Part shown: in pieces, positions 11,046-51,236 of the stretch | Layout: each line of letters starts with the position of its first letter | How positions within the stretch are numbered: position 1 is the stretch's first letter | Assembly (NCBI GenBank): GCA_964495875.1 | Contig: CAZBWB010000002.1 | Location: 24,363-88,362, forward strand | Direction: 5' to 3' | Source of the DNA: Candidatus Woesearchaeota archaeon | GTDB taxonomy: Archaea; Nanobdellota; Nanobdellia; Pacearchaeales; GW2011-AR1 | DNA length: 64,000 nt | Made by a program: the position numbers and the translations under genes | Notes under the pieces: generated by a model | Database searches by the model: none | The model's input: only the letters and a program-made list of their open reading frames with translations | Told to the model about the DNA's origin: nothing

Positions 11046-11053
11046 TTTATAAA
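11046..11053 (+). promoter_or_regulatory. TATA box (TTTATAAA), leaderless spacing
   Basis: Centre 25.5 nt upstream of ATG 11075. Confidence 0.6.
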
Positions 11054-30238: not shown

Positions 30239-30808
30239 ATGAAAAAAGGTTCAAAAACATTATTTTCAATATTGATAAGATACATAATCTTGATTTTATT
30301 AGGATTGCCAAATCTCTGGCTTTTTTATCTCATCTTCACTCCATTGACAGTCTACCCTGTTTTTTTTCTTCTAAATTTATTTTTTACAGCCTCTTTAGCG
30401 GGTAACTCTATCTCTATACCTTTGCTTTCTGACAAAATTGAAATAATAGAAGCATGTGTGGCAGGTGCTGCATATTACCTGCTCTTGATTCTTAATCTGG
30501 CAATTCCAATGAAAATAAACAAAAGATTAAAGATGTTCTTATTCTCTTTTGGAGCTCTCCTTTTACTGAACATTCTCAGAATTTTTTTGCTTAGTCTATT
30601 GTTTATTTCTGGAACATCTTTTTTTGATATAACGCATGAACTTTTTTGGTATTTGGGAAGCACAATTTTTGTCGTAGGAATCTGGTTTGCCGGCGTTAAA
30701 ATTTTTAAGATTAAAGAAATTCCCTTTTATTCGGATTTAAAAAATACAGGAATTTTAAAATATTTAAAGAAAACTAAGAAATCCAAGCGTTCCAAAAAGA
30801 ATAAATAA
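30239..30808 (+). CDS. small exosortase/archaeosortase-family-like membrane protein
   Basis: 189 aa, polytopic; ordered Cys (IEACVAG), Arg (LLNILRIF) and His (DITHELFWY) in or near TM segments, as in archaeosortase active sites. Confidence 0.5.
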   Translation: MKKGSKTLFSILIRYIILILLGLPNLWLFYLIFTPLTVYPVFFLLNLFFTASLAGNSISIPLLSDKIEIIEACVAGAAYYLLLILNLAIPMKINKRLKMFLFSFGALLLLNILRIFLLSLLFISGTSFFDITHELFWYLGSTIFVVGIWFAGVKIFKIKEIPFYSDLKNTGILKYLKKTKKSKRSKKNK

Positions 30809-31245: not shown

Positions 31246-32007
31246 TTAATCTTCATTTTGTTCCTCTAACGCTTCATTAACTCTTGCAAGCATTTCTACC
31301 ATTAATTTTTCTGTGACTTGGAGTACTTCACAGTTATTTATATTCAAATTGTAACAGGTATTATCAAATTGCTCTATACTTGTTTCATTCCCCTGTTGTA
31401 ATTGTATAAAAGTATATTCTCTTCCAGGGTCACATACAAGACTTTCATTTTTTATAGGTTCACCTTTTAAAGCAACCATTAGATTCATTAGATTTGCAAC
31501 ACCGATAATTCCATCACCATCACAATTAAAATTTTCTGTAAAATTTAAAACAATTTGTTTTCTCATAACCAATTCTTCTACGTCGAAAGGTATCTTTTCT
31601 AATTTTCTTGGATCATTTCTTAAATAAAAATTATAATGTCCTGCAATTACTTTTCCAAGAGTAACCTTTTTATCAGAACCTACTGGTAAAGAAGTTTTAT
31701 AAATTGTTTTTCCAACAAGTGTTTTTCTGTCAATTTCAAATTTAATCCCTTTATAAGTAAAATGATTCATAGAATTAATTAAAATAAAAATTCCAACAAA
31801 AAATAATGCCAGTATTCCTGCAATCAAAAATATTTTTTTTAATTGTTCATTCTCTTTTTTTATTTGTTCTTCAACTTTTTTCTCGGGTTTTTCCCCATCT
31901 TCAATAATTTTCCCCCCGTCATCTTTTTCTTTTTTAATATCAATAATTTCACGAGTTTCCTCTTTCTTCTTCTCTTTTTCCTTCCCTTTTCTTTCTCTTT
32001 TTTTCAT
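31246..32007 (-). CDS. N-terminally anchored extracellular protein (paralogue 1)
   Basis: K/E-rich cytoplasmic head, one TM, ectodomain with FTYKGIKFEI and ...ETSIEQFDNTCYNL; own CTTATAAA box 25.5 nt upstream. Confidence 0.55.
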   Translation of the reverse strand: MKKRERKGKEKEKKKEETREIIDIKKEKDDGGKIIEDGEKPEKKVEEQIKKENEQLKKIFLIAGILALFFVGIFILINSMNHFTYKGIKFEIDRKTLVGKTIYKTSLPVGSDKKVTLGKVIAGHYNFYLRNDPRKLEKIPFDVEELVMRKQIVLNFTENFNCDGDGIIGVANLMNLMVALKGEPIKNESLVCDPGREYTFIQLQQGNETSIEQFDNTCYNLNINNCEVLQVTEKLMVEMLARVNEALEEQNED

Positions 32008-32041: not shown

Positions 32042-32605
32042 TTATATTCCAATTATTTTAAGTAAGAAGCCATCAGTAATCTTTGCCAAATCTTCTAATT
32101 TTCCTCTGATAAATACACAATTATTATCCTGAACAATCTCGGTTGCATCTGCTTCTTTAATTGTGATAAAATTATCTTCGCAGGTTTTTACAGGAAGCTC
32201 TTCATCTTCACACACTTCTCCATCCAAACAGGCCAATTGCATTCTCTGTATTATAGACTCAAGATTACGATAAATCTCGCTGGAGGATTCTATATCATCT
32301 GACGAAATATAAAGAGGTTTGTCATAATAATTATTTATGGATTTTAATTCTGAATCAATTGTTTCTATCTCATTTGGATTATATCTGAATGAAAACTCAG
32401 AATTTTCAATTTCAACAATCCAAAACCCGTTTTTTTCAATAAATTCATACCCGTTATAGGTAATCTTATTTTCTTCAGAATTACTTCTGCTAAAAGAATA
32501 CCCAAAAATACTCGCAAATAGGATTAAAACCAAAGCCAATCCAACAATTAACTGATTTCTTTTCTTCTTCTTTTCTTCTTTTCTTTTTGATGTTATCTTT
32601 CTCAT
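32042..32605 (-). CDS. N-terminally anchored extracellular protein (paralogue 2)
   Basis: Same architecture; ITYNGYEFIE and ...ATEIVQDNNCVFI align with 31246..32007; own TTTTTATA box 25.5 nt upstream. Confidence 0.55.
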   Translation of the reverse strand: MRKITSKRKEEKKKKRNQLIVGLALVLILFASIFGYSFSRSNSEENKITYNGYEFIEKNGFWIVEIENSEFSFRYNPNEIETIDSELKSINNYYDKPLYISSDDIESSSEIYRNLESIIQRMQLACLDGEVCEDEELPVKTCEDNFITIKEADATEIVQDNNCVFIRGKLEDLAKITDGFLLKIIGI

Positions 32606-32698: not shown

Positions 32699-35179
32699 TT
32701 ACGCTACCACGAGTGACGCGCTTGTTGAAGATGTTCCCTTGTATTTCTTGCCAGCTGTTGTATCAACAGTCTGAGTTCTCAAATAAGTAACAGCATTTAC
32801 TGTATCATCAGCGCTGTAACCAGCAACCAATAATGCAATCTTTCCTGTTGTGTAAGCATCACCAAAGCTCTGTATCAAGAATTCTCCTGAACCAACACCT
32901 GTCGCAGCTGTCCAGTCTGCAGTACATTTAGCACCGCCAACCAAAGTAGCAGCAGCTGAATTAATACAGCTTCCACCAACCACAACCAGGTTCTTTGAGC
33001 TTACAGAACTAACTTCGCTGTCCTTTACAAGAACTTCTCCCAGTATACCAGTTCCACCTTCCATTACAGAAGTTTCTTCTGTAAGGAATACTTCTGCATA
33101 AGTTTCTGAATCATCAGTACCAGGATAATACACTTCAGCCCAATCTTCATCTGGTGCTGTATAATGCAATATTCTTGGAGCACACTCATCTCTAATATAT
33201 GTTTCATATATATTTGTATCTCCTTGTTCTTCACCATTTGGTCCTCCTGTTCCTGCATTATCTACTTCACTTACATACACCTTATTATCAGTATTATCAT
33301 TTAGGGTAAGATTAAACATTGTACCTGTACCGAGATTTTCATCCTTGTCTTCACCAACCATAAAAAGTGCAACTTCTGACCAACCATGGCCCTTAAAAGT
33401 AGTGTTGCCTGGTGAACCCACAAAGCTAACTGCTCCAAGGGTAGTATGATTAGCACTTTTATTAGTCATTGCCTGACCATAAACCCCAGTAAAATTGTTA
33501 TCATATGGCAGAAATACCATTAATCCTCCGGGTGTAAGTGCAGTATGAAAGTTAACATCTTTATTATCGCTGGGAATTCCAGCTGTGATATTAACTGATT
33601 CATCTCCTCCAGAGGTATAATTAATAAAACCAATAGTTAGGGATACATCTCCAATACTACAAGTATCTGTTTGTTTCTTTTCTGTACAAACATCTACCCA
33701 AGAACTTCCATCATATTTTTGGATGGTAGTTTCATTTCTACCAGCAGTTGTATCTTGTGAAACTTTCGCTCTTAGCAAATAAGATTCACCCTCTTTACTG
33801 GTATTATAAGTTGCAACAAAATAAGAATGCCAGTCACTTCCTCCTCTTTTTTCATAGAATACCAAGTCACTATAATTTGTTGTTGCTAATTTCTCATCAG
33901 TGGCTTTTCCAATTCCAATAAATTCTCCGGATGAATTAGAGTACAATATATTAAAACTAACTGTGCCGTCTTTCAAAGGCATAGTCAATTCAATACTTGT
34001 ATCACTATCTTTTTCAACAGTTATTTTCTCTTCTGCAGCTCTCACAAGTTCATTCATTGAGAATTTAACTGCTCCAAATCCAGGCATTGTAAGTTCTGAT
34101 TGAGGAGATAAAAAAGATTCTTCGTCTGTTTTCCATTGTATGGTAATCTTATCAAGTTTACCTGATGATTTCCACAGATGGCCTTTTATTCCAGTGATTG
34201 TATCATCATTTAATTTTATATCCTGTCCATGGTTTAGTTCAAGTTTACCAGTTCCAATACTAAATGATGCACCACCTACTTCACCAGAAACTGCTAACTT
34301 GGTTACATCTCTAACACCAAGGTAAGAACCATCATCTAACTTGTACGAATTTCCTTTAACAAGTTTTCCACTTGCAGGAACTCTTTCTCCGTCAACCATG
34401 AATACTACTTCATCCTCATCAATCCATTCAATAGTCACTGACTTACCTGAAACAGTTGCTGTTTCACCTTCTTTAACATTCCCAATAGCTGCAGAGTCTA
34501 ATAAAATAGTTTTCCCAAAATAACTATTGGATGACCCATTTGCCATTTCTGAAACATAATAGGTTTTTCCCATTAACGGAAAATCACTGCCTTCAATATC
34601 CTCCATTCTAAGATTAGCGTCTACATCACTTGTAACATCACTAAGGAAATCAATGGTATAGTTTAAGATATATGTGTTTGAAGATATTTTAAATCCTATC
34701 ACTGGCGTTCTCGTACTTAATCCAACAAGACTTTCATAATCAGAATCTCTGAAATGTGTTAATTCTGGAGTACCAAGAGAAATGGTTTGTTCATAATTAA
34801 ACTCATCATTATCACCTGCAATATATGTTCCATCTGCAAGCAATGTAGATAAATCCTCATCATCTACAGTTCCAACAAATGTACCCCAAGTATTGTTGAT
34901 ATTGAGATTATCACTACCTTCTGCAAGCAAAACATTATCTCCGCTCGGAGTTCCACCAGTAGTTCCTAAAGAAGATGCTAAGTTATCTTCAATGAATCCT
35001 GCCTGAACCAAATCTGAAGGATCTACTCCAGCTCCAGTTCCGTAAACAATTGCTACATTTGCAGTGCTTCCAACAACAAAAGGTGATGGATAATTTGCAG
35101 CAGCAGCAACGCCAGCAGTCATACCGATCATCAATGCACTCACAGCTATTGCAGAAATTTTCTTAAAAATATTTTTCAT
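32699..35179 (-). CDS. S-layer protein (Methanococcales-type N- and C-terminal domains)
   Basis: Sec signal. N-terminus NYPSPFVVGSTANVAIVYGTGAGVDPSDLVQAG. C-terminus NLVVVGGSCINSAAATL...KIALLVAGYSADDTVNAVTYL. Strong AGGAGGT upstream. Confidence 0.75.
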   Translation of the reverse strand: MKNIFKKISAIAVSALMIGMTAGVAAAANYPSPFVVGSTANVAIVYGTGAGVDPSDLVQAGFIEDNLASSLGTTGGTPSGDNVLLAEGSDNLNINNTWGTFVGTVDDEDLSTLLADGTYIAGDNDEFNYEQTISLGTPELTHFRDSDYESLVGLSTRTPVIGFKISSNTYILNYTIDFLSDVTSDVDANLRMEDIEGSDFPLMGKTYYVSEMANGSSNSYFGKTILLDSAAIGNVKEGETATVSGKSVTIEWIDEDEVVFMVDGERVPASGKLVKGNSYKLDDGSYLGVRDVTKLAVSGEVGGASFSIGTGKLELNHGQDIKLNDDTITGIKGHLWKSSGKLDKITIQWKTDEESFLSPQSELTMPGFGAVKFSMNELVRAAEEKITVEKDSDTSIELTMPLKDGTVSFNILYSNSSGEFIGIGKATDEKLATTNYSDLVFYEKRGGSDWHSYFVATYNTSKEGESYLLRAKVSQDTTAGRNETTIQKYDGSSWVDVCTEKKQTDTCSIGDVSLTIGFINYTSGGDESVNITAGIPSDNKDVNFHTALTPGGLMVFLPYDNNFTGVYGQAMTNKSANHTTLGAVSFVGSPGNTTFKGHGWSEVALFMVGEDKDENLGTGTMFNLTLNDNTDNKVYVSEVDNAGTGGPNGEEQGDTNIYETYIRDECAPRILHYTAPDEDWAEVYYPGTDDSETYAEVFLTEETSVMEGGTGILGEVLVKDSEVSSVSSKNLVVVGGSCINSAAATLVGGAKCTADWTAATGVGSGEFLIQSFGDAYTTGKIALLVAGYSADDTVNAVTYLRTQTVDTTAGKKYKGTSSTSASLVVA

Positions 35180-35589: not shown

Positions 35590-35931
35590 ATGGCAATAAG
35601 AGAAATCACAATAAAAGGAGAGAAAGAAGCATTTTCTATTTTCAAAAAAGGGTCTTCTGGTAAAAAATATGATTTTTCGGGTATTTTAGCTTTGAGACAG
35701 CTATTAAGCAACGAAAAAGCAAGGATTTTACATGTGATAAAAACAAGAAAACCCCAGTCTATTTATGATTTAGCTAAAAAATTAAACAGAGGTTTTAAGG
35801 CTGTAAATGATGATGTCAAATTACTGGAAAGATTTGGTTTTATAGAATTAATAGAAGAAAAAACAAAAAACCGGACGAGATACAGACCTGAAATTGTAGT
35901 AGATACAATCACGATTAATGTAAAAATTTAA
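35590..35931 (+). CDS. winged-helix (MarR/ArsR-like) transcription regulator
   Basis: ARILHVIKTRKPQSIYDLAKKLNRGFKAVNDDVKLLERFGFIEL helix-turn-helix plus wing. Confidence 0.6.
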   Translation: MAIREITIKGEKEAFSIFKKGSSGKKYDFSGILALRQLLSNEKARILHVIKTRKPQSIYDLAKKLNRGFKAVNDDVKLLERFGFIELIEEKTKNRTRYRPEIVVDTITINVKI

Positions 35932-36512
35932 TAATACACATTAAAGGATATTTCATAATCTTCATTGCTTCTTGTAAAATCCTGGGCAGCCCCCTTGTAA
36001 TTCTGTGTTATGTTGCCTTTATTAACCAACAGAAGTTCCTCTCCTTCTAAACTAATTCTCAAGGCATAGCCTTTTATTGGAGTATCCTCTCCTACATTCC
36101 AGCTATTCTCACAGATTTCCTTTAAAGTAATTTCCATTGTTTCACAGGCACTTCTGCCATCTAGGCACATTTCATCATCTCCGCAACTAAAAATCAGATT
36201 TTGCACAGATAAAAAGCCTGTGGAATCTTCACAATCAGTCGTATATTGCAAAAATGACTGGATAAATCCTTCAACTTCATAACTTTCAATTTCCATCTTA
36301 GAACTTCTCAGGGAAAAACTAAGGAAAAAAAGCAATATAACAGATACTATGATTATTATCAATACAAACCCAACCATTTCCTCTTGCGAGCGTTTGCCCG
36401 AGACAAGATGGTCAAAATAATCCCGAGTGTGAACGGGAGTAGAGCGTTTTGACCTTGGACAAATTTTTTGTATTAATCCCAATGTTAAGGCGCGAGTTTT
36501 TTTATTTTTCAT
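35928..36512 (-). CDS. pilin-like protein 5 (194 aa), long basic N-terminus
   Basis: ...GKRS|QEEMVGFVLIIIIVSVILLFFL then a Cys-containing ectodomain; ATGA overlap with the upstream gene. Confidence 0.45.
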   Translation of the reverse strand: MKNKKTRALTLGLIQKICPRSKRSTPVHTRDYFDHLVSGKRSQEEMVGFVLIIIIVSVILLFFLSFSLRSSKMEIESYEVEGFIQSFLQYTTDCEDSTGFLSVQNLIFSCGDDEMCLDGRSACETMEITLKEICENSWNVGEDTPIKGYALRISLEGEELLLVNKGNITQNYKGAAQDFTRSNEDYEISFNVYY

Positions 36513-37048
36513 GTTTTATCCTCAGAACTTACCATCAATCTTGCAAGTTCACATTTACCATAAACTCCTGTGTCTGAACTTTCTTTCCAGCATAATGCAA
36601 CAAAATTTGATGAAGCAGGCAATTTATTTACATTTTTTGAATAAACTTCAATAACTCCGCAATCAGGAAAATTTCCCGAATTACATACGATATTCCCTTC
36701 ATCCGGGTAGATTTTTCTTATCTTTATTTCAGCAATTCCCCAAAAGCCAACATATTTTGATATATGCTCTTTTAAAATCATGATTTTGTCAGCATCAATA
36801 CAATTCAACTTGCTGCTTCCAAAAGAATCTCCGCAAGCAAACTCAGGCGAATTAGCAAGTTTTGCAACAAGTAGCATAGAGTTCTCTTCTTCAAGAATAT
36901 TTGCACTTTGTTTTAGATTGGAAAATCTTATTACTAATACAAATATTCCAACAAATATAAAAAAAAGCGTAACTGCTATTAGCATAAATGCCATTTGCTG
37001 AACCTTCAGTTGTCCTTTGTTATGTGATTTTCTTTTTTTTATTACCAT
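36509..37048 (-). CDS. type IV pilin-like protein 4 (class III signal peptide)
   Basis: MVIKKRKSHNKG|QLKVQQMAFMLIAVTLFFIFVGIFVLVI. Confidence 0.55.
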   Translation of the reverse strand: MVIKKRKSHNKGQLKVQQMAFMLIAVTLFFIFVGIFVLVIRFSNLKQSANILEEENSMLLVAKLANSPEFACGDSFGSSKLNCIDADKIMILKEHISKYVGFWGIAEIKIRKIYPDEGNIVCNSGNFPDCGVIEVYSKNVNKLPASSNFVALCWKESSDTGVYGKCELARLMVSSEDKT

Positions 37049-37965
37049 AATCCACATCTGCTTTCCATTTCATTTTTATAATCAAGATTTTCAATTTTTT
37101 CCTCTAACAAAAGAACATCCTTTGAATCATCAAAATCTTCTGCGAGTTCAGATAATTCTGTTAAATAACTATCAATATCAGATTCACAACCTTTCTCTCT
37201 AATTAATAATGCTTTATCTCTATATATCAGAGAGAGTTCTTCTATTCTTTGCATCAATCTTTTTAACTGACATTCATAAACATCAACATCTCCAAAAATC
37301 CCAGCATACATTAGTGCATCAGACACAAAATACATTTTTTTCCCTTGTTTTTTGACATATCCATAATCATAATTCACACTAATATCACAATTTCCTGAAA
37401 AGCATACATTAATCATATCATCAGAGCAACCTCCTGTTAAAAGATTCTCTTGATTTAATTTTTCGATTTCATATTCAATTTCCTCCGGAGCATTAACAAA
37501 ACAATAAATGTCTTTGGAAGAAGTCATGTAAATTAAATCAGCAACCTTGAACGGAAAATCAAATGGCTTTGAAAAAATATAAAATGTTTGTCCTTCAATA
37601 ATTTCTTTTGAAAAGATATACTTGTTTGAAAAACCCACATCGGTATTTGTCTCTGTCCATGTATTAAAACTTTTTTGCGAAACTTTAATCAGTTGTTTGC
37701 CGAAGTTTCCTGCATTATTACAGCTGTTGTAAATTCTTGATTCTGCCGGTATTGTGAATGATGTTGTTTTTGCTGATTCAAAACCAGTCTCCAAAGGATT
37801 AAGCAGAATCCCGATTTCTTTTCCTGTTTTGGCATCAATCGTTGTTCGTTCTGTTTTCATAAGTTTTGTCACTCCGTAAATCGCAAGAAAAATTATAAAG
37901 ATTCCTACAATAATCGCAAAAAGCCATCCGAAAGATATTTGTAAAGCACCTCTTTTCTTTTTCAT
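37042..37965 (-). CDS. type IV pilin-like protein 3 (class III signal peptide), 307 aa
   Basis: MKKKRG|ALQISFGWLFAIIVGIFIIFLAIYGV; ORF opens at 38016. Confidence 0.55.
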   Translation of the reverse strand: MKKKRGALQISFGWLFAIIVGIFIIFLAIYGVTKLMKTERTTIDAKTGKEIGILLNPLETGFESAKTTSFTIPAESRIYNSCNNAGNFGKQLIKVSQKSFNTWTETNTDVGFSNKYIFSKEIIEGQTFYIFSKPFDFPFKVADLIYMTSSKDIYCFVNAPEEIEYEIEKLNQENLLTGGCSDDMINVCFSGNCDISVNYDYGYVKKQGKKMYFVSDALMYAGIFGDVDVYECQLKRLMQRIEELSLIYRDKALLIREKGCESDIDSYLTELSELAEDFDDSKDVLLLEEKIENLDYKNEMESRCGLW

Positions 37966-37981
37966 TTTTCCAATCAGAGAT

Positions 37982-38410
37982 TTACGAACGGGTAATTGTA
38001 ACCAAAGATTCCCCATATTCTTTTATAACTATCATTCTTATCTTACCCCCAATATTATCTATGCAATAAGGATTTTCTGAGGATGTAATTTTTCCAATAT
38101 CGATATGTTCAATTTTTCCCCTGTCAACTATTTTTTCTGAATCAAACATTAAATTCTGAGATTCATCAATGAAGCAAACCGCATTTATGCTGTTTGGAAG
38201 AGAATATTCTTTTGTCTGACTTCCCTGCTGACTCTGCCACATTTGATTCACGTCTGCCTGCAGATTATCCATGAAAAGTTTAACCTGTATTGTTTTTTGC
38301 ATGTCGATAAATTTTATTATTGCATAAACAGCGACAGAAAGAAAAATAATTATAAGAAAAATGGAAAAAATCATTCCAAAGGATAATTTCAGCTGCCCCT
38401 TTTTTTTCAT
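37982..38410 (-). CDS. type IV pilin-like protein 2 (class III signal peptide), 142 aa
   Basis: MKKKG|QLKLSFGMIFSIFLIIIFLSVAVYAI; Q at +1 as in EppA-type archaeal pilins. Confidence 0.6.
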   Translation of the reverse strand: MKKKGQLKLSFGMIFSIFLIIIFLSVAVYAIIKFIDMQKTIQVKLFMDNLQADVNQMWQSQQGSQTKEYSLPNSINAVCFIDESQNLMFDSEKIVDRGKIEHIDIGKITSSENPYCIDNIGGKIRMIVIKEYGESLVTITRS

Positions 38411-38431
38411 TCTTAAAAAAAGCGATTAGAA

Positions 38432-38439
38432 CTTATAAA
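38432..38439 (-). promoter_or_regulatory. internal TATA box ahead of the four small pilin-like genes
   Basis: Reverse-strand TTTATAAG centred 25.5 nt upstream of ATG 38410, in the only real spacer of the operon. Confidence 0.45.
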
Positions 38440-38443
38440 TCTT

Positions 38444-40585
38444 TCAATATTCAAAAAATTCAAAAGGACGTAAAATTATATTGCATTTATTTTGTGCAGG
38501 CTTATTTCCATATTCATCCTGGCATTTTATGTATAAGTTATTGCTAGTATCCCATGCCACAGAATGAACTATGTCATCACCGCTTATCATGCTAAGCCCG
38601 TCTTCAAAATTATAAGAACATGAGGTAATATCATAAACACACTCTGCCGGCTCACTTGTTATTATTTTCAAATCCCCCCCTTCATAATATGCTCTTGTAA
38701 TTAAAGGTGTGGTAAAATCTGCTTCTACTTCAAGCTCTGTTGTGGCAGTTGCTACATTTCCGGCCATATCAAAACACTGTATATGATAAGTATAATCTCC
38801 TTCTGAAAGATAAAGTTCATCAGAGTGCTCATAAGAACGTGTATTTTTAAATTCAGTATAATCGTTGTAGTTTCCAGTACTGCTGTAATAACAATCTGCT
38901 ATTCCATTTTCATATCCTGCTGATGTTCTTGCTTGCAGTTTGATCTTGACAATATTACTTGAGCCTTTGATAATTCCGCTTGGCTCTACTGAATCAATCA
39001 CCAGAGCACGGGAACCGATTAAAGTTAATTCTTTGGATTCAGTATTCATGTTTCCTGCTGAATCACTGCACCTGAAATAAAATTTATTTTCTTCCTCATT
39101 TTGAAGTCCTGTCAATGTTCCAGAACATGAGTAGCTTATCTGGGCATTAAATGTGGTAAATTCACTTATTTTATCACCACACGATATCATCATTTCTTCC
39201 ATCTCTTCATAGGATTTATCGCTGTGGCTCCATCTGCATCCTCCATTCTCACTTAACAAAGGTTCATTGACATAAATTCTTACATTTGTTTCATGGGCTT
39301 CTGTTTCGCCGAAATATCTTATAGGTGTGTTATCTAAAAGATTAAATCCCTGAATCAGAGGTGGTGAAATATCTGGAAGAGGGTCAATGCAGAATTTAAA
39401 TAAAAATTCTCCTACATTAGCATAACCATTGACATTCTCACATCTCACATAATATTCATAATTTCCTCCTGACGGAAGTTCAATTCCTTCATTTTCAAGA
39501 TTTGCCTGTCCAGGGAAAAACATAAGTTGAGTATGGTTTCTGTCCCACAAACCGCTTCCAAAAGAAAGTTGCATATCATCAAAACTTGATGTTCTGTGGT
39601 CTTCTATCCTGCATGTTCCTTCTTTGTCTAATTCAATTCCAAAAGTAAAAGATTCAAAAGAAGGCAGACAACCGCCTTTGTATTTTACTTCAACTCCGTT
39701 TGTTGCTGGTATTGGCTCATAGGAATAATCACCAGACAACAAAGAATCCTCTCTTGGTGTTATCTTAGGAGAAGTCGTGTCTGTCGGACTTACATAAATA
39801 CATCTCGCATTATCTCCTTCATTTATCAGTTCACATGCCTGCCCCAGACTTTTACACTTGTATAATGTGCATGGAAATTCTCCTCCGTTGCATTTGTTAC
39901 AATCAGCTCCTCCTGTCTGCGATTGCCATGTCTTACAGTCAAATACCACTGCTCTTTGGTCTGTTCTCAAAGTCATCCTCCAGAAAGTGATTAATGCTGT
40001 TAGTATTCCAATCGGCCATCCCACTACCAATGTAGCTAAATTTGCACCCAATCCAATTCCTGTTGCAATTCCTGCTGCGAGATTTCCTACAGTAAAACCC
40101 AAACCAATAGAAGCTCCTATAGCATTTGCCCAAAAAAGGGCTTCGTCAACATCATGCCCTCCAGCCCACCATACTGCTGCAAAAGTTATCACCCAAGCAA
40201 CACCAGCCCAAAGCAATCCACTTTTCATTATATCAAACTTAATATTTACTTTTCCCAAAAGCTTAATAATTTCTTTTCCCAATTTTTCGCCCACAAAATA
40301 TGCTACTGAATGACCAGCTTCTACTTCCCCTACTGTTGCTAATACCCCTCCCCCTCCTGCTTTTGCCATTATTGCACCTGTTATAGAAGCCTTTGTATTT
40401 TCTTCTGATTCCTGGTCGGATTCATTGGATTTTATTATTGCTTTTCTTATAACATTAGTTGATAACGGAGAACTCGATGTCTGTGCAGAAATAATGTTTG
40501 TAAATGCTACGATGCTTGTGATTAAAATAAAAATCTGAATTAACGCAATAGATTTTTTTTCTCTTTTTCCATTATTCTTTTTCAT
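38444..40585 (-). CDS. 713-aa envelope protein: signal peptide, Gly-rich hydrophobic helices, Cys knot, four or more beta-sandwich repeats
   Basis: MKKNNGKREKKSIALIQIFILITSIVAFTNIISA signal. WAGVAWVITFAAVWWAGG / GASIGLGFTVGNLAAGIATGIGLGANLATLVVGW helices. Repeats YEYYVRCENVNG, FYFRCSDSAGN, YTYHIQCFDMAGN, LYIKCQDEYGN. Confidence 0.6.
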   Translation of the reverse strand: MKKNNGKREKKSIALIQIFILITSIVAFTNIISAQTSSSPLSTNVIRKAIIKSNESDQESEENTKASITGAIMAKAGGGGVLATVGEVEAGHSVAYFVGEKLGKEIIKLLGKVNIKFDIMKSGLLWAGVAWVITFAAVWWAGGHDVDEALFWANAIGASIGLGFTVGNLAAGIATGIGLGANLATLVVGWPIGILTALITFWRMTLRTDQRAVVFDCKTWQSQTGGADCNKCNGGEFPCTLYKCKSLGQACELINEGDNARCIYVSPTDTTSPKITPREDSLLSGDYSYEPIPATNGVEVKYKGGCLPSFESFTFGIELDKEGTCRIEDHRTSSFDDMQLSFGSGLWDRNHTQLMFFPGQANLENEGIELPSGGNYEYYVRCENVNGYANVGEFLFKFCIDPLPDISPPLIQGFNLLDNTPIRYFGETEAHETNVRIYVNEPLLSENGGCRWSHSDKSYEEMEEMMISCGDKISEFTTFNAQISYSCSGTLTGLQNEEENKFYFRCSDSAGNMNTESKELTLIGSRALVIDSVEPSGIIKGSSNIVKIKLQARTSAGYENGIADCYYSSTGNYNDYTEFKNTRSYEHSDELYLSEGDYTYHIQCFDMAGNVATATTELEVEADFTTPLITRAYYEGGDLKIITSEPAECVYDITSCSYNFEDGLSMISGDDIVHSVAWDTSNNLYIKCQDEYGNKPAQNKCNIILRPFEFFEY

Positions 40586-40586
40586 T

Positions 40587-42338
40587 TTATTTATGACTCT
40601 CTGCTTCTGGGATATTTGCTTTAGAGACATTTTCTCCCACAAATAATTCCTTCCATGAGTAATAGCTATTTTGCTGGATATAATTTGATTTTACTCCGCA
40701 ATCTCCTAAGACAATACATAATTCTTCCTGGTTTCCTGCCCATTCTGATTTTAAATCAACAGTGCCTACCCCTAATTCTCCGCTGGCACCCTTATCCATA
40801 AAAGATTCAGATTCAGGACATTTTCTGGCACAAAGTGCACGACAATCTCTAAGAACCGCTGTGCAATTATCCAAACATTCTGCATAGCATTTGCCTTCAA
40901 TAGCCTCCCATCCGCTCGTTACACTTTTAAAATATCCTGCAACAGAACTTGCACTTCCAACACTGCATACTTGTGAAGGAGATATCTGTGACTCAACTCC
41001 AAGTATTGCAGCATCTGGCTCCCAAAAATTAAACCCAGGAGGATATTTAGGAACACACATAGCTTTTATAGATTTAATAGACTCATTTATTAATTCTCCT
41101 GCTGAATTGTAATTAGAGGTATAATTTGAAAATAATATATCATCTCCGTTTTCATCTTTTCTGGTTACTCCCATCTCAATTTTGCAATCTCTTTGGTCTG
41201 TATCCAAGCATACTTTTGAACTATTTTGGAACACGCAGTCCTGCCATCTGTTCATAAAACAATTTGCTTCTCCAGGAACATCTTCTTTGCACAATTTTTC
41301 TCTTAAATTTCCGCATAATTCCCATTGAACCTCTCCATCATAGCAATAAAGTCTATAAGATAAATCTCCTGGTTTTGCATCTTCAAAAGAGATTATTGGT
41401 TCAGAACACCACGCACTGCCATGCGCTTTTATTTCTCCATTATAATTGCAACTTAAGTCTCCGCAGATATAATTTCCAGAATCAACGCTTTCTCCTGCTC
41501 TTTTTTCTCTGCACGTGCTTCCTAAAAGATAATTGCAGTTTCCGCAATTAGGTGAATCTGCATTTGAATTTCCATAACCACAAATCTCACTTGAAGCAGG
41601 GTCTTTTATGTAAGTCCAATAAGGAACATCATCTTCTAATCCAGAATTATAAACATTTGCAGGGTTTCCGCAGTTATCAACAAAAAAAACCTCGTTTCTC
41701 CCCTCAACACAGGTTGTTCTTTTAGTCATGGTGCATATTGTTCCTAATTCAGGAGCACTACACAACAGTCCTGCATGGAATTCTTTTCCTTCTGAATTGC
41801 ATTTTTCTCTTGTTTCAATAGTGCATTTTTTCCCTTCATCTGTCTGAAAAACACAAGCACCTTTTGCAGCAGGTCCTGCACTCAGCAAACATTCTTCCTG
41901 AGTTGTTATACTGTCGTCAAAATTTGGCTGAACTCCTATGTCTGCTGATACTTTATTGCAGGTTGTTCTCCGTATAAAAGAAGCACCTTCTCCAATAAAA
42001 CAACAGCCATACTGGCATTCAGCAATTTCTTCAGCATCTTTGTCATACCAATATCCTCCGAGATTAGGATTGCATGCTGTTGATGAAGAAGCCATACATG
42101 TTCCTTGTGCATTATTTACACAAGTGCCTGTTGAGCAATACTGGGTTGATTCACATGCAGTGTCATCTATTCTATAATTTTGATTGCAATACTGGCTATT
42201 CCCAACATCTAAACAAATCCCTCCGTTTATCGTCATCTCACAACAAATAGCACTTACAATATTTAATGAAAATATTATAAATATCCCTAATAAAATTCCT
42301 TTCAAAAATATTTTTTTAAATTCTCTTTTTTTAATCAT
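40587..42338 (-). CDS. 583-aa secreted cysteine-rich protein (~45 Cys)
   Basis: MIKKREFKKIFLKGILLGIFIIFSLNIVSA signal, then Cys every ~12 residues to the C-terminus; no family recognised. Confidence 0.6.
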   Translation of the reverse strand: MIKKREFKKIFLKGILLGIFIIFSLNIVSAICCEMTINGGICLDVGNSQYCNQNYRIDDTACESTQYCSTGTCVNNAQGTCMASSSTACNPNLGGYWYDKDAEEIAECQYGCCFIGEGASFIRRTTCNKVSADIGVQPNFDDSITTQEECLLSAGPAAKGACVFQTDEGKKCTIETREKCNSEGKEFHAGLLCSAPELGTICTMTKRTTCVEGRNEVFFVDNCGNPANVYNSGLEDDVPYWTYIKDPASSEICGYGNSNADSPNCGNCNYLLGSTCREKRAGESVDSGNYICGDLSCNYNGEIKAHGSAWCSEPIISFEDAKPGDLSYRLYCYDGEVQWELCGNLREKLCKEDVPGEANCFMNRWQDCVFQNSSKVCLDTDQRDCKIEMGVTRKDENGDDILFSNYTSNYNSAGELINESIKSIKAMCVPKYPPGFNFWEPDAAILGVESQISPSQVCSVGSASSVAGYFKSVTSGWEAIEGKCYAECLDNCTAVLRDCRALCARKCPESESFMDKGASGELGVGTVDLKSEWAGNQEELCIVLGDCGVKSNYIQQNSYYSWKELFVGENVSKANIPEAESHK

Positions 42339-42339
42339 T

Positions 42340-43098
42340 TTAACAATATCCGCTCGGTGAAAACACGAGACTTCTTGAAGCGAATTCAAATTTATTTCCT
42401 TTTTCTCTGTTTGTTATGATGTAAATTTTTGTATCGTCGCTTAAGAATTTTTTATCAATCTTAATATCAGGATAAAAATCCATGTAAATTGTTACATCAG
42501 TGTCTCCATAAGTCGCTTCCCATTCTAGTATACTGTTTGTAACTGCAATCAATTCATAAAGATTATTGTCAAGCACAACACTGAAAGAATCATATTTCTC
42601 TGTTTCTCCTTTTGTCAGTGTCAAGGAATAATCAAATGTAGAGACAATTCTGTCTGGAAGCAATTCTACATTCACAGGACCTTTTTTTAAATCCACACCA
42701 TATCCTTTTTTTTCATAATTTTCTTTTAAAGAATCAAAACAATCCTGGACTTCATCCTCAATTTCATTTTTTATTTCCTGTTCAATGTGTGGCTTTAATT
42801 GTGGTTCTTGAATAGAACAAAGTGCACAATATTGTGCAGTATAGCATAAATTTTTTATGTTTATATTATCAAAAGTGCTGAAGAATGCAGGTTCAAAATC
42901 TCCTCCCTGCAAAGAAATTTTTTCCACGACATCTTCAATCTCTTTTTCAGTGCATGCCTGAATGAATTCCGGAGGATTTTTCACACCTTTGCCAACTGCT
43001 GATTTTATCTGTGGAAAAAACATATATATCAAAATACCAAGCACAAAAATAACTATAGCAATTATGATAAAAATTGTAACCTGCCCCTTTTTTTCCAT
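42340..43098 (-). CDS. type IV pilin-like protein 1 (class III signal peptide), 252 aa
   Basis: MEKKG|QVTIFIIIAIVIFVLGILIYMF; first gene of the operon. Confidence 0.55.
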   Translation of the reverse strand: MEKKGQVTIFIIIAIVIFVLGILIYMFFPQIKSAVGKGVKNPPEFIQACTEKEIEDVVEKISLQGGDFEPAFFSTFDNINIKNLCYTAQYCALCSIQEPQLKPHIEQEIKNEIEDEVQDCFDSLKENYEKKGYGVDLKKGPVNVELLPDRIVSTFDYSLTLTKGETEKYDSFSVVLDNNLYELIAVTNSILEWEATYGDTDVTIYMDFYPDIKIDKKFLSDDTKIYIITNREKGNKFEFASRSLVFSPSGYC

Positions 43099-43119
43099 AT
43101 CTGATTTACGATATCTTTA

Positions 43120-43127
43120 TTTATAAA
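43120..43127 (-). promoter_or_regulatory. TATA box (TTTATAAA) of the pilin-like operon, leaderless spacing
   Basis: Centre 25.5 nt upstream of ATG 43098. Confidence 0.6.
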
Positions 43128-45885: not shown

Positions 45886-47139
45886 ATGTCAGATTTTAAA
45901 GAGAAAAGAGTGAGGAGTTTAACTCAGCTGTATTATTCTAAACCAGAAGTGCAAAAAGTAATTTTTGAATTTTCAAAGAACAGGGAAATCTGTCCGAGAT
46001 ATTTTGAAGGATTTGGAAAGCGTCCTGATTCTCTGCAATATCTCAGTGATTTTTTTGAATTAGTAAAAAAAGGAGCAACGTCTTTTCATTGTTCAGAGGA
46101 AATCTGGCAAGAACCATTAAATCTTTCAACAGATATGGATGAGAAAAAATTGAATGAATTAAGAATAGGGTGGGATTTGTTGCTTGATATTGACAGCAAA
46201 TATTTGGATTATAGCAAGATAATGGCAAAGATAATCATAGAAATGCTGAAATTTTGCGGAATAAAAAATATCGGTGTCAAGTTTTCAGGAAGCAAAGGAT
46301 TTCATTTAATTATTCCTTGGAAAGCATTTCCAAAAGATGTTAATGGTGTAAAAACTTCAGACATGTTTCCAGAATGGCCGAGAATAATTACAAATTATAT
46401 TACACATATGATGAAGGAAAAATTAATTGAGCAGATTAGTGAGTTGTCAAAGCCGAACAGATATGTAAGAGATTTTCAGGCTCCGAAAGAAGTAATGCCT
46501 GATTTAATTTTAGTATCTCCTCGTCATTTATTCCGGATGCCGTATTCTTTGCATGAAAAAACAGCTCTTGCGAGTGTTGTCATCAAGCCAAGTGAAATTG
46601 AAGATTTTCAGCCAAAAGATGCAGACCCTTTGAAAGTTAAGATAAAAAATTTTCTGCCTGATTCACAGGAAAATGAAGCCCGTGAACTTTTGCTGCAGGC
46701 ACTCGATTGGCATAGAGAAAATAATCCAAAAAAAGAAGAAGAAACAAAAAGAGAATTCAAGCCGATTAAAATTTCAAATTTATCTGAACAAAATTTCCCG
46801 CCATGTCTTAAAAAAATTCTGCAGGGACTTGGGGATGGAAAAAAAAGAGCCTTGTTTGTTCTGATTAACTTATTTCGTTCAGTTGGCATGGAAAAAGATG
46901 AAATTGAAAAAAGAATTGAAGAATGGAACAAGAAAAATAAACCTCCTCTAAGGAAGGGATATATACAATCCCAATTGTCCTGGAGTTTTAAAAGAAAACC
47001 AATCATGCCTCCAAACTGCAAAGAATTCTACAAGGGAATCGGAATATGCATTCCAGATGAACTCTGTAAATTAATAAAAAATCCAGTTAATTATGTGACG
47101 AAGAGGAGTTTTATAACAAATTTTAAAAACAATAATTGA
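45886..47139 (+). CDS. priS: DNA primase, PriS catalytic domain fused to a PriL-type Fe-S C-terminal domain
   Basis: PriS motifs WDLLLDIDSK, SGSKGFHLIIP, RMPYSLHEK. C-terminal FPPCLKKIL...PPNCKEF...GICIPDELC (four Cys) resembles PriL-CTD. Confidence 0.8.
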   Translation: MSDFKEKRVRSLTQLYYSKPEVQKVIFEFSKNREICPRYFEGFGKRPDSLQYLSDFFELVKKGATSFHCSEEIWQEPLNLSTDMDEKKLNELRIGWDLLLDIDSKYLDYSKIMAKIIIEMLKFCGIKNIGVKFSGSKGFHLIIPWKAFPKDVNGVKTSDMFPEWPRIITNYITHMMKEKLIEQISELSKPNRYVRDFQAPKEVMPDLILVSPRHLFRMPYSLHEKTALASVVIKPSEIEDFQPKDADPLKVKIKNFLPDSQENEARELLLQALDWHRENNPKKEEETKREFKPIKISNLSEQNFPPCLKKILQGLGDGKKRALFVLINLFRSVGMEKDEIEKRIEEWNKKNKPPLRKGYIQSQLSWSFKRKPIMPPNCKEFYKGIGICIPDELCKLIKNPVNYVTKRSFITNFKNNN

Positions 47140-47150
47140 GTTATAATGCA

Positions 47151-48941
47151 ATGAAAAAGGTGCTGATTATATCTCTGGTACTTATAATCTTTTGTGCGTA
47201 TTTTGTTATTGCTGCAAATGAAACTGTTTCTGAAAAAGGTTATTCCTGCCTGGAAAATAAGGTTGCAGGCAAATGCTCTTCTCTTTCTTCTGAAGAAAAA
47301 ATATTTTCCCTGCTTGCAATAGACAGATGCAAGACAGAAGTACTTGCTGATTCAAAAAACAAACAATGCTGGCCTGCTTCAAATTGTAAATTAAAAACAA
47401 CTGCTCAGGCAATTCTTGCTCTTAATTCTGTAAATGCAGAAACTACTGAAGCAGAGAATTGGTTACTGTCACAGACAACTTCTCCTTCAGATGTTGACTG
47501 GCTTTTGCAAATAGAAGCAGAACCGACTTCATGCTCTGTTTCTTATTTAGGCAGGTCTTATCCGATTTCAATTAATTCAGACAGGAAAATAAGCGGCAGT
47601 CCTGGAAGCTGTTTGAGAATTTATGAGAATTACTGGTTAAAAATTTCTCCTGTTTGCTATAGTGAAGAATTTGAAATTTCTTGTGACCAAACTTTTTTCA
47701 CAAATTTATTATACAAAAAGAGAGATTCAGAAATAATTTATGTTTTAAAAGGCACAAATTCTGCTTCAGGAGGAGGTGTAACAAAGGAGAAAGTAAGTTC
47801 TGTTTGCTTTAAACAAGGAGCATCATGCAATTATGAGGGAAGCTTATGGGCAGCCTATGTCTTGAACATTAAGGGGTATGACGTTTCTGCTTACCTGCCT
47901 TATTTAATAAGTATGAAAGATGAAAATTCAGAATTTCTTCCAGAATCTTTCTTATACTCTTTAACAAGTGATTTTAGAGATGAACTTTTATCTAAACAAA
48001 AAGAAAACTGGTGGTTGGAATCAAGCGATAAGTTTTATGATACAGCAGTGGCTCTTTTATCTTTGCAAAAAGAAGAACCCCAGGAAAAAACAAATGCAAA
48101 AGAATGGCTCGAAGAAGTTCAGGGAGATAACGGATGCTGGCAGAATAGTATAAGGGATACTGCATTCATTTTGTTTTGTGCATGGCCCAAAAAAATAGTC
48201 ACTCCATCTGAAACAAAACCAGATTGTGAAGATTCAGGATATTATTGTATGACTAGCACTGCCTGTCAAAAAGTAGGAGATGTTTTAACAAATTATTCTG
48301 GCTGTTTTGGAGTAAATGTTTGCTGTAGTTCAAAAAGTTTATCAGAAAGTTGCTTGACTCAGGACGGAGAAATCTGCACTTCAAATGAAATATGCAAAGG
48401 AGGAAGTTTCGTTGATGCCACTGACACTGAAAGGTGCTGTATGGGGGGAGACTGCACAAAAATAGAGGAAGAGGAAGAAGAGGAGGAAGAGGAAGAAGAA
48501 GGAAAATCAGAATGTGAAATATATGGCGGAACATGCAAATCATCCTGCTCAGAAAATGAGGAATTACGTTCATATGATTGTCCTTCTTTTGATGTCTGCT
48601 GTTTCAGCAAAGCTAAGAAAGGATATACAGGAGTTATTATTTTGGCAATTCTTATTGTTTTGACTATTCTTGGAATTATATTCAGGAAAAAACTGAGAAA
48701 ATTCCTTTTTAATCTTAAATCTAAACTAAAAGGAAAATTCAAAGGAAAATTTTTCCCAGGTTTAAGAAAAGGTCCAAAAAGAAGATTCCCTCCAGGTCCG
48801 TCTGCATTAATTAGACCAAGAACCAGACCAAGAACTATCCTGCCTCCAAGCCAGAGACCTGCAAGAAAACCTGCTCCTGTAAGAAGACCCAAAAGTGAAT
48901 TGGATGAAGTTCTTAAGAAATTAAAAGAGATGGGGAAATAA
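47151..48941 (+). CDS. surface protein: alpha/alpha-toroid-like repeats, three Cys modules, poly-Glu, TM, Pro/Arg-rich cytoplasmic tail
   Basis: Signal MKKVLIISLVLIIFCAYFVIA. Repeats KLKTTAQAILAL / FYDTAVALLSL / IRDTAFILFCAW. 12xE run. TM VIILAILIVLTILGIIF. Tail PPGPSALIRPRTRPRTILPPSQRPARKPAP. Confidence 0.65.
   Translation: MKKVLIISLVLIIFCAYFVIAANETVSEKGYSCLENKVAGKCSSLSSEEKIFSLLAIDRCKTEVLADSKNKQCWPASNCKLKTTAQAILALNSVNAETTEAENWLLSQTTSPSDVDWLLQIEAEPTSCSVSYLGRSYPISINSDRKISGSPGSCLRIYENYWLKISPVCYSEEFEISCDQTFFTNLLYKKRDSEIIYVLKGTNSASGGGVTKEKVSSVCFKQGASCNYEGSLWAAYVLNIKGYDVSAYLPYLISMKDENSEFLPESFLYSLTSDFRDELLSKQKENWWLESSDKFYDTAVALLSLQKEEPQEKTNAKEWLEEVQGDNGCWQNSIRDTAFILFCAWPKKIVTPSETKPDCEDSGYYCMTSTACQKVGDVLTNYSGCFGVNVCCSSKSLSESCLTQDGEICTSNEICKGGSFVDATDTERCCMGGDCTKIEEEEEEEEEEEEGKSECEIYGGTCKSSCSENEELRSYDCPSFDVCCFSKAKKGYTGVIILAILIVLTILGIIFRKKLRKFLFNLKSKLKGKFKGKFFPGLRKGPKRRFPPGPSALIRPRTRPRTILPPSQRPARKPAPVRRPKSELDEVLKKLKEMGK
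48465..48500 (+). repeat. (GAR)12 purine tract encoding a 12-residue poly-Glu linker
   Basis: gaggaagaggaagaagaggaggaagaggaagaagaa, in frame in 47151..48941. Confidence 0.85.
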
Positions 48942-50739: not shown

Positions 50740-51236
50740 TTTATATTCTCATTATTTTTATCTTTATTAATTATTTCTTTAAGTCTTTTTTCTAATATTC
50801 CTTTTTCAACTTGCAATACTCTCGCTACTTCATCATAACCATGAAGTCTTCTTATAAGTTCATTAAATATCTCGTTCCATCCGTTATTTGTCAGTGCAAT
50901 TAATTCAGGAGAAATAATTTCAATATGTGCAGGCATATATCTGAACATCAGATATGCGAGGGAAGACATTTCATCAATTTCAACTTCAATTTCAGCAAAA
51001 CTTGTGTAAAAATCTTGCTGTGGTTTGATTTTTTTCTCTTCTCCGGTTTCCATGATTTTGACATTTTCTTTCATAGGAACTGGCTCTTTTATGTCCTTGT
51101 TTTTGACACTAATTCCTTTCTCTTTATCAATTTGCTCTATCAGTTTCTTCAGTGTTTCAACCAAATGTTCCGGCGGCTTTCCAATTATCTCAAATATAAC
51201 TACTGCCCTGATTTTCTTTGCTTCATCTAAACTCAT
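50736..51236 (-). CDS. hypothetical 166-aa protein (second gene of the ComEA-like operon)
   Basis: 14-nt overlap with the ComEA-like gene; no family recognised. Confidence 0.5.
   Translation of the reverse strand: MSLDEAKKIRAVVIFEIIGKPPEHLVETLKKLIEQIDKEKGISVKNKDIKEPVPMKENVKIMETGEEKKIKPQQDFYTSFAEIEVEIDEMSSLAYLMFRYMPAHIEIISPELIALTNNGWNEIFNELIRRLHGYDEVARVLQVEKGILEKRLKEIINKDKNNENIK

Follow-up and report, generated by a model that had tools for sequence, protein, structure and literature searches.

A conserved operon of pilin-like and large surface proteins, probably the subunit set of an undescribed fibre or contact complex in DPANN archaea

Introduction

The loci of archaeal type IV pili (T4P) of clade 1 hold at least five minor pilins together with two large adhesin-like proteins (PMC4858521), and the substrates of the prepilin peptidase EppA carry leaders of 5-13 residues that end in Gly and are followed by Gln at the first position of the mature protein (+1) (PMC3875500). 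In Methanococcus and Haloferax, pilin genes normally lie apart from the genes of the ATPase and the platform (PMC3875500, PMC4858521), and the pilus genes of Methanococcus are distributed over at least four loci, with ATPase and platform apart (PMC3875500). Here, these systems are compared with an operon in a 64,000-nucleotide stretch of archaeal DNA (positions 24,363 to 88,362 of contig CAZBWB010000002.1; the whole stretch is referred to as the window). The operon consists of seven tightly packed open reading frames (ORFs) on the minus strand (35928-43098), numbered P1 to P7 in transcription order. It is lineage-wide and unannotated, its pilin-like subunits are of class III type and have unrecognised folds, and it probably encodes the subunits of a hitherto undescribed fibre or contact complex on the surface of the tiny, symbiotic DPANN archaea.

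The operon shares several traits with the Epd pilus of Methanococcus maripaludis and with clade 1 (System 1): at least five pilin-like genes are combined with two large non-pilin surface proteins in one operon, the leaders are short with a small end residue and Gln at +1 (leaders of 5-13 residues in the described system; PMC3875500), and, as in the described systems, the pilin genes would occupy a locus other than that of the ATPase and platform. Unlike in these systems, there is neither a DUF361/Class_IIIsignal match nor a Glu at +5, P2 and P3 are devoid of a DUF2341 or PilY-like domain, no gene for EppA, an ATPase, TadC or a MinD-like protein is situated near the operon, no major pilin of ~70 residues was found, and the ectodomain folds are without known relatives.

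Parallels also extend to the bacterial minor-pilin/PilY1 priming complex and to the GspH-I-J-K pseudopilus tip of the type II secretion system (T2SS), in which four to five paralogous pilin-like subunits are likewise co-transcribed with a large non-pilin protein and charged residues near the mature N-terminus are conserved; P5 is enlarged by an extra domain, as is GspK. These complexes, however, belong to another domain of life, whereas the cleavage motif found here is of the archaeal type, and there is no significant similarity in fold or sequence. As in FlaF/FlaG and the Sulfolobus bindosome, whose pilin-like N-termini serve in S-layer-associated or non-filament roles, monotopic proteins with pilin-like N-terminal helices may act at the S-layer, the operon being located beside an S-layer gene. 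FlaF/FlaG, in contrast, belong to the archaellum operon with FlaI and FlaJ, and the substrates of the bindosome are sugar-binding proteins, neither of which applies here.

Conserved N-terminal junctions

P1 and P4-P7 are single-pass proteins, the short basic leader of which ends in a small residue (position -1) and is followed by Gln, as a rule, at +1 and by a hydrophobic helix; the five N-termini quoted in an earlier note on this DNA proved correct on re-reading. The N-terminal patterns, drawn from orthologues extracted out of 87 related loci (Table 1), reveal a junction motif that is conserved at the amino-acid level across about 60 genomes. All five families have Lys at -3 and Lys or Arg at -2. 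Position -1 is Gly, Ala or Ser in P1, P4, P6 and P7 (with a single Cys in P4) and Gly or Ala in 37 of 47 P5 sequences, the remainder having Lys or Asn. Gln occupies +1 in every motif-matched P1, P6 and P7 and in 52 of 58 P4 proteins, and P5 has Tyr, Ala or Phe instead. The P1 motif is present in 69 of 72 homologues, and the median possible leader in the orthologue sets comprises 6-9 residues.

The codons at the conserved positions vary freely: CAA and CAG are used at ~50:50, all Gly and Ala codons occur, and GAA alternates with GAG. This synonymous variation indicates that selection acts on the peptide and not on a ribosome-binding site. The 'QEE-M' of P7 and similar motifs were also considered as a ribosome-binding site followed by a downstream start, a reading that was rejected given the free variation of the Gln and Glu codons, the commonest pair GAA GAA, which lacks GAGG, and the presence of Ile at +4 in 15 of 56 P7 sequences.

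A six-frame scan of the 64 kb for [KR][GAS][QAYF] followed by an uncharged stretch returned four sites, all of them within the operon; P6 was missed because of its QQ at +5/+6. P1 and P4-P7 each contain a single hydrophobic segment, which is N-terminal, and an even number of Cys residues in the remainder. Charges close to the junction are conserved as well, namely Lys at +3 in P4 and P6, EE at +2/+3 in P7 and Glu or Gln at +3 in P5, and their complementarity suggests a specific pairing of the N-terminal helices. As judged from these patterns, the five N-termini appear to have the architecture of archaeal class III signal peptides, and the short leader ending in a small residue, together with Gln at +1, would resemble Methanococcus EppA substrates.

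Conservation of the operon

P1 has 447 homologues in a database clustered at 90% identity, all of them hypothetical, and P5 has 1643; with a P5 profile, 1699 representatives at 50% identity were retrieved. For P3, 44 homologues were obtained from the database, which are all annotated as 'hypothetical', and a scan with one genome per species detected a P3 relative in at least 542 species genomes. With a single exception, these genomes are labelled as Woese-, Pace- or Nanoarchaeota or as unclassified archaeon; the remaining one is a metagenome-assembled genome (MAG) labelled Patescibacteria, which is probably mis-binned. None of the seven proteins matches Pfam, NCBIfam or PDB sequences beyond a weak Big_13 match in P3.

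A lack of conserved gene order had been named in the earlier note as a refutation of its proposal; this objection clearly fails, as P1-P2-P3-P4-P5-P6-P7 succeed one another in the same way in nearly all related loci with sufficient flank (~60 loci). Median identities to the window proteins, determined for the same 40 genomes, amount to 50-52% for P1, P5, P6 and P7, 43% for P4, 40% for P3 and 35% for P2, compared with 37% for the S-layer protein, 64% for the primase and 71% for PCNA. P2 is the fastest-evolving member of the operon, with a rate like that of the S-layer protein. This ranking suggests that P2 behaves as an exposed surface protein and the pilin-like set as a constrained structural core.

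Two bacterial labels were encountered among the homologues: a complete operon resides on a 147-kb contig (L032, JAHYJW010000002.1) of a MAG labelled 'Patescibacteria group bacterium', and one P1 homologue (P0078) carries the name 'Candidatus Omnitrophota bacterium'. Errors of binning or labelling probably account for both.

The pilin-like proteins and their predicted structures

In profile comparisons with hhalign, P4 and P5 align over 148 columns with a probability of 96%, and weaker probabilities, via the N-terminal region, were obtained for P1 and P4 (84%), P4 and P6 (74%) and P1 and P7 (51%). The five proteins are distant paralogues: P4 corresponds to the N-terminal half of P5, and P1, P6 and P7 are weakly related to these two.

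P1 has a single transmembrane helix, which a Pro-rich linker connects to an alpha/beta ectodomain of two lobes that contains 6 Cys. In its AlphaFold2 model (pLDDT 89.5), the Pro-rich linker (29-38) between the transmembrane helix and the two-lobed domain is of low confidence. The P5 model (pLDDT 83.8) features a 44-residue N-terminal helix (12-55), a long-stranded sheet and a C-terminal helical bundle. In these models, P5 looks pilin-like in its order of helix then sheet, while P1 has rather the appearance of a tethered ectodomain. No relatives were revealed when PDB sequences were searched with profiles of P1, P5 and P3, and an exhaustive P5 profile search recovered close relatives only, without a remote link to known pilins. 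Since relatives are lacking among both PDB structures and sequences, the ectodomain folds of P1 and P5 are new as far as these libraries show. The sole recurring family match is a weak one to DUF7248 in 5 of 42 P4 members; no literature on DUF7248 and related DUFs was found.

The large pair P2-P3

The two non-pilin proteins, called giant in the earlier note, are large only (Table 1). P2 has no Pfam match, the only one of P3 is to the immunoglobulin-like (Ig-like) Big_13, and neither a DUF2341 domain nor a PilY1 beta-propeller was found in P2 or P3. According to its hydropathy, P3 is polytopic, with an N-terminal hydrophobic segment and a Gly-rich hydrophobic region at ~138-230; the Cys pattern of its Cys-rich module is invariant among homologues. 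Many P3 homologues have K-K-G-x-[IL]-A-[LI]-S-Q-I-I-I-L at the N-terminus, so that P3 was considered as a sixth pilin, but a ..VSA/ISA signal-peptidase I site follows the helix, and the N-terminus is therefore treated as a long Sec signal or anchor. That P2 and P3 are paralogues was also rejected: an hhalign probability of 100% stemmed from P2-P3 fusions in the alignment and dropped to 6% with a clean one.

In roughly 25 related loci the operon takes an expanded form, in which a second P1 and a protein of ~1260 residues precede it. The N-terminal half of this protein matches P2 and its C-terminal half P3. Duplication of a P2-P3 fusion together with P1 suggests a single functional unit of P2 and P3, with which P1 cooperates. 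On two Hainich groundwater contigs (L004/L005), P1, P2, P3 and the fusion paralogue are present and P4-P7 are not adjacent, which indicates that the two halves of the system are separable in the genome.

Long modular leaders

Approximately 15-20% of the pilin-like genes have long leaders of 20-60 residues, which are built from one to three tandem modules. Each module ends in a basic-Ser motif, ..ICPKSKRS/Q in type A and ..LIPRNRS/GQ in type B (the stroke marks the junction), and where several paralogues of a genome have such leaders, these are of the same type. The 17-mer AAGTCAAAACGCTCGCA at the end of type A does not differ in DNA sequence between distant genomes, although their proteins share only ~50% identity, and it was found only in these leaders. 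Long leaders occur in P1, P4, P6 or P7 of ten related loci (L002, L008, L022, L025, L035, L042, L056, L062, L081 and L084), and the window P7 has one (Table 1). RNA structure in the element was tried as an explanation and rejected, as RNAalifold yields no pairs and the window copy folds at a z of only -2.35.

Layout, promoter and host

The seven ORFs re-read from the sequence agree with those of the earlier note. Homologue alignments support the likely starts of P1 (43098), P2 (42338, MIKKREF), P3 (40585, MKKNNGK; this Met is conserved in at least 90% of the alignment), P4 (38410), P5 (37965, MKKKRG), P6 (37057 or 37048) and P7 (36512). With these starts, the spacers from P1 to P7 are +1, +1, +33, +16, -16/-7 and -4 nt, the same range of about -16 to +33 nt as given before.

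The position of the TATA box ahead of P1 was confirmed, too. The 8-mer TTTATAAA is common in the AT-rich window (24 sites vs 9.4 expected), which has a G+C content of ~32%. A TATA-like box is found at the identical distance in about half of 51 homologous P1 genes from other genomes, and for this reason the leaderless promoter is probably genuine and conserved; all seven genes are predicted to be co-transcribed from it. The same spacing occurs at other genes of the window, for instance at 11046-11053 before an ATG at 11075, indicating that the leaderless arrangement in itself is ordinary for the organism. Between the TATA box and the start codon lies the motif ATATCGTA, which recurs, in this form or as a close variant, at the same position upstream of P1 in about a dozen related genomes. 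It may be a binding site of the adjacent HVO_A0114/Lrs14-like regulator, itself a possible regulator of the operon.

The host is a reduced Pacearchaeota-type DPANN archaeon. This assignment follows from the pacearchaeosortase (NF033505, 217 bits vs a cut-off of 80) and the PACE-CTERM putative S-layer protein (NF033506, 414 bits) of the window and bears out the reduced archaeon proposed earlier. The window also encodes an archaeal ribosomal-protein operon, FtsZ, SepF, PCNA and primase, and the same proteins are also found on a 106-kb NCBI contig and in a Logan assembly of SRR14802574.

Table 1. Coordinates and properties of the operon, its promoter and its neighbours; positions refer to the window, and junctions are orthologue patterns (before the site / mature)
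Feature	Position	Strand	Properties	Junction
TATA box TTTATAAA	43120..43127	-	Leaderless P1 promoter (predicted); centre 25.5 nt from P1 ATG	
Motif ATATCGTA	43107..43114	-	Between TATA box and P1 start codon; putative operator or promoter-proximal element	
P1	42340..43098	-	252 aa; leader MEKKG, then QVTIFIIIAIV...; most canonical class III-like N-terminus	K-[KR]-[GAS] / Q-V-T-I-F-I-I
P2	40587..42338	-	583 aa from MIKKREF; Sec-type signal peptide, secreted; 46 Cys; without C-terminal anchor	
P3	38444..40585	-	713 aa; hydrophobic N-terminus, Gly-rich hydrophobic region, Cys-rich module, C-terminal Ig-like domains	
P4	37982..38410	-	142 aa; leader MKKKG, then QLKLSFGMIF...; 2 conserved Cys	K-[KR]-[GA] / Q-M-K-L-S-F-G-M-I-F
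P5	37042..37965	-	307 aa; leader MKKKRG, then ALQISFGWLF...	K-K-G / [YAF]-L-[QE]-I-S-F-x-W-L-F
P6	36509..37057	-	About 180 aa; leader ..HNKG, then QLKVQQMAFML...; invariant K at +3, QQ at +5/+6	K-K-[GA] / Q-x-K-I-Q-Q-M-A-F
P7	35928..36512	-	194 aa; modular leader ending GKRS, then QEEMVGFVLII...; invariant E2 E3 G6 F7	K-[KR]-[AG] / Q-E-E-M-V-G-F
P7 long leader	36384-36512	-	42 residues, unusually long; no nearer start codon	
Winged-helix regulator, HVO_A0114/Lrs14-like	35590..35931	+	Convergent; most constant neighbour, adjoining P7 in 52 loci	
Second S-layer-like gene	32699-35179		S_layer_C	
Small N-terminally anchored protein	32042-32605	-	After S-layer gene; conserved in 37 loci	
Small N-terminally anchored protein	31246-32007	-	After S-layer gene; conserved in 33 loci	
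Pacearchaeosortase	30239-30808	+	NF033505; few kb from operon	
PACE-CTERM putative S-layer protein	27878-29560	+	NF033506	
Cys-rich C-terminally anchored surface protein	47136-48941	+	No family match; near primase in 16 loci	
Cys-rich C-terminally anchored surface protein	49201-50514	+	No family match; near primase in 13 loci	
ComEA-type helix-hairpin-helix protein	51223-51780	-	PF12836 HHH_3, 66 bits; signal peptide and C-terminal membrane anchor	

Envelope gene neighbourhood

The genes around the operon form a conserved cell-envelope neighbourhood. In related loci, PCNA and primase are constant upstream, an S-layer-like gene lies beside the operon in 48 loci, followed by the two small anchored proteins and the pacearchaeosortase, and the convergent regulator, located downstream, is matched by PF25212. 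Weak matches of the regulator are to Lrs14/Sta1/Phr. Asn occupies -1 in the pilin-like junction of the protein encoded at 32042-32605, which begins with ..KKKKRN/QLIVGLALVLILF. The ComEA-type protein, homologues of which were found in 3 related loci only, could be an extracellular DNA receptor. Approximately 7 kb past the right end of the window, a gene for the RuBisCO large subunit (L089 1-305) adjoins a NUDIX gene, a pair consistent with the nucleotide-salvage RuBisCO pathway reported for DPANN.

Search for assembly machinery

The search for assembly genes was confined to the 64 kb, extensions of ~12 kb and ±10 kb of the related loci. ORFs of at least 150 residues in the window and the 87 loci contain neither a T2SSE-type Walker A motif nor a credible candidate for an A24 peptidase (G-x-G-D in a multi-pass membrane protein), and clustering of the flanks of the related loci yielded no ATPase family. 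The membrane and large proteins of the window were assigned by Pfam and NCBIfam to an M50 protease, an AI-2E transporter, a radical-SAM enzyme and similar, and include no component of a type IV filament (TFF).

The published statements on T4P machinery in these lineages conflict: Woesearchaeota have genes annotated as FlaI/J/K (PMC8407392), some DPANN are reported to possess the TFF systems 1, 4A and Aap-like (10.64898/2026.04.22.720090), and DPANN islands with FlaI, TadC and unrecognisable pilins have been described (PMC6393860), whereas T4P components are stated elsewhere to be 'missing in DPANN genomes' (10.1101/2020.05.14.094862). By comparison with Methanococcus and Haloferax, missing adjacent assembly genes would not be unusual for an archaeal pilin locus.

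Possible roles of the operon

An even chance is given to the reading that the operon encodes the pilin-plus-adhesin module of a type-IV-filament-like surface structure, the assembly genes of which are encoded elsewhere; its layout would then be closest to that of archaeal clade 1/System 1 pili. In favour of this reading are the conserved junction motif with its short leaders, the selection at the peptide level, the confinement of the motif to the operon in the six-frame scans of the window, the single N-terminal transmembrane segment and the even Cys count of each pilin-like protein, their distant paralogy, the helix-then-sheet order of P5, the conserved synteny, the P2-P3 fusions, the fast evolution of P2 next to the more constrained P1 and P5-P7, the archaeal precedents named above and the reports of TFF components in Woesearchaeota and some other DPANN. 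Such a structure could arise in the following manner: The precursors would insert with the N-terminus inside the cell, and an A24-type prepilin peptidase (EppA/PibD-like), encoded elsewhere, would cut after Gly, Ala or Ser. The freed N-terminal helices may then bundle, the complementary charges (K3, E2E3, E/Q3) fitting a specific pairing, and the product would be a short fibre or pseudopilus. In this assembly, P4-P7 may constitute a minor-pilin-like priming or tip set and P1 either the abundant subunit or the carrier of P2-P3, and P2-P3, the fast-evolving pair, would project past the S-layer and offer a surface for contact or adhesion. Energy would be provided by an ATPase of the FlaI/PilB type and a TadC/FlaJ platform at another locus, as in Methanococcus and Haloferax. 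Host attachment or DNA uptake, as proposed in the earlier note, would be putative functions of such a structure.

Several observations weigh against a filament. The first concerns the junctions themselves. The strict FlaFind-type pattern of Szabo et al. 2007 reportedly reads [KRDE][GA][ALIFQMVED][ILMVTAS]x3, and P1 (R-G-Q-V-T-I) alone of the five fits it. The other four deviate through charged or polar residues at +2, +3, +5 or +6, namely Lys at +3 in P4 and P6, EE at +2/+3 in P7, and Tyr or Phe at +1 and Gln or Glu at +3 in P5. The pilin models PF04021, PF07790 and PF01917 and those of NCBIfam match none of the seven proteins, nor any of the 42-43 members each of the P4, P6 and P7 families. 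Of the class III architecture claimed in the earlier note, the conserved -3/-2/-1/+1 junction in ~60 genomes is supported, without a match to a pilin family and with P1 alone fitting the strict pattern. Its claim of closeness to the EppA-processed Gln(+1) pilins fares similarly: the short leader with its small end residue and Gln at +1 are retained, but the Glu at +5 (QxSxE) is absent, this position being Phe in P1, Ser in P4 and P5, Gln in P6 and Val in P7.

In Foldseek searches of the kind suggested in the earlier note, neither the P1 nor the P5 model has a match to a pilin or any other PDB entry with E <= 0.001; the only pilin-related match is EpsI at E 0.7, which is not significant. In the P1 model, the linker parts the transmembrane helix from the globular domain, so that there is no continuous pilin alpha-1 helix. 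The median identity of ~50% across the order is above what is usual for pilins, and no small stand-alone ORF for a major pilin was found nearby. Finally, translations, Pfam and NCBIfam searches of candidate ORFs and motif scans agree with the earlier note that a filament ATPase, a platform and a prepilin peptidase are absent from the 64 kb; assembly genes were not found within ±10 kb of 80 related loci from species genomes either, and ~12 kb past the window ends hold ribosomal, RuBisCO, Tricorn-like and ABC-transporter genes and no assembly genes. The published statement on missing T4P components in DPANN, quoted above, points in the same direction.

The main rival, a static membrane-anchored envelope complex, in which the conserved N-terminal polar residues of five uncleaved type II signal-anchor proteins would arrange a heteromeric transmembrane bundle around the polytopic P3, is possible, if on balance rather unlikely. 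It would hold or organise the S-layer or form a fixed site for host contact or transport, requiring neither an ATPase nor a prepilin peptidase, and it is consistent with much of what speaks against a filament: the lack of assembly genes in the window and near 80 related loci, the lack of sequence or structural similarity to pilins, the flexible linker after the transmembrane helix in the P1 model, which is like that of a tethered ectodomain, and the fairly high conservation of P1 and P5-P7. The constant envelope surroundings, which comprise the S-layer-like gene in 48 loci, the two anchored proteins, the pacearchaeosortase and the PACE-CTERM protein, and the membrane domain that P3 has of its own also favour it, and FlaF/FlaG, reported to be pilin-like monotopic S-layer binders (PMC4425475), provide a precedent. 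An anchored complex does not, however, explain the invariant small residue at -1 and Gln at +1 ahead of the helix in four paralogous families, nor the fixed basic leader of 5-9 residues, and the modular leaders that end in the same basic-Ser motif resemble processing sites.

Somewhat more doubtful is a self-contained, lineage-defining surface machine of Pacearchaeota and Woesearchaeota, which would possess pilin-type helices and yet not be a canonical type IV filament; it would operate without a dedicated FlaI/PilB ATPase, and its leaders, those of modular build included, would be processed by a different protease or retained.

As a variant of the filament reading, a Com/T2SS-like pseudopilus was considered, which would serve to take up substrates such as DNA or to secrete through the S-layer. 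P4-P7 and P1 would then build a short piston that can retract, and P2-P3 would be its receptor or gate on the outside; this appears improbable. Four or five pilin-like genes in one operon resemble the ComGC-GG and GspG-K layout, and the gene of the ComEA-type HHH_3 protein (51223-51780) is located 8 kb away. The minimal biosynthesis of these organisms and their dependence on imported building blocks (10.1101/2020.05.14.094862) would be in line with an uptake function. On the other hand, a ComEC-like channel, an ATPase or a platform was not seen, the ComEA-like gene occurs in just 3 related loci, and homology to Com/Gsp pseudopilins does not go beyond the insignificant EpsI match.

That the operon is an artefact of chance ORFs or a mobile or viral island, in favour of which nothing was found apart from the lack of annotation of all seven proteins, is refuted by thousands of homologues, synteny next to PCNA and primase in about 60 genomes, confident AlphaFold2 models and variation of the purifying-selection type, and may practically be dismissed.

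Implications

Of the uncultured DPANN archaea that inhabit groundwater, lakes and sediments, Pacearchaeota and Woesearchaeota rank with the most abundant, and Pacearchaeota are reported to be especially strongly host-attached (10.1101/2020.05.14.094862). No attachment structure has so far been assigned to genes in these two lineages. If the operon encodes a filament module, P1, P4-P7 and the P2-P3 pair are concrete candidates for the apparatus of host contact, and subunits that are missed by current pilin models would be added to the type IV filament superfamily. Should the operon function independently of the usual ATPase and peptidase, it would represent a new kind of archaeal surface machine; the self-contained machine considered above could, if real, be an apparatus for host contact or nutrient uptake on which these minimal symbionts depend, and a new class of archaeal envelope complex made of folds without known relatives. 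Either way, the operon defines seven protein families that merit curated models.

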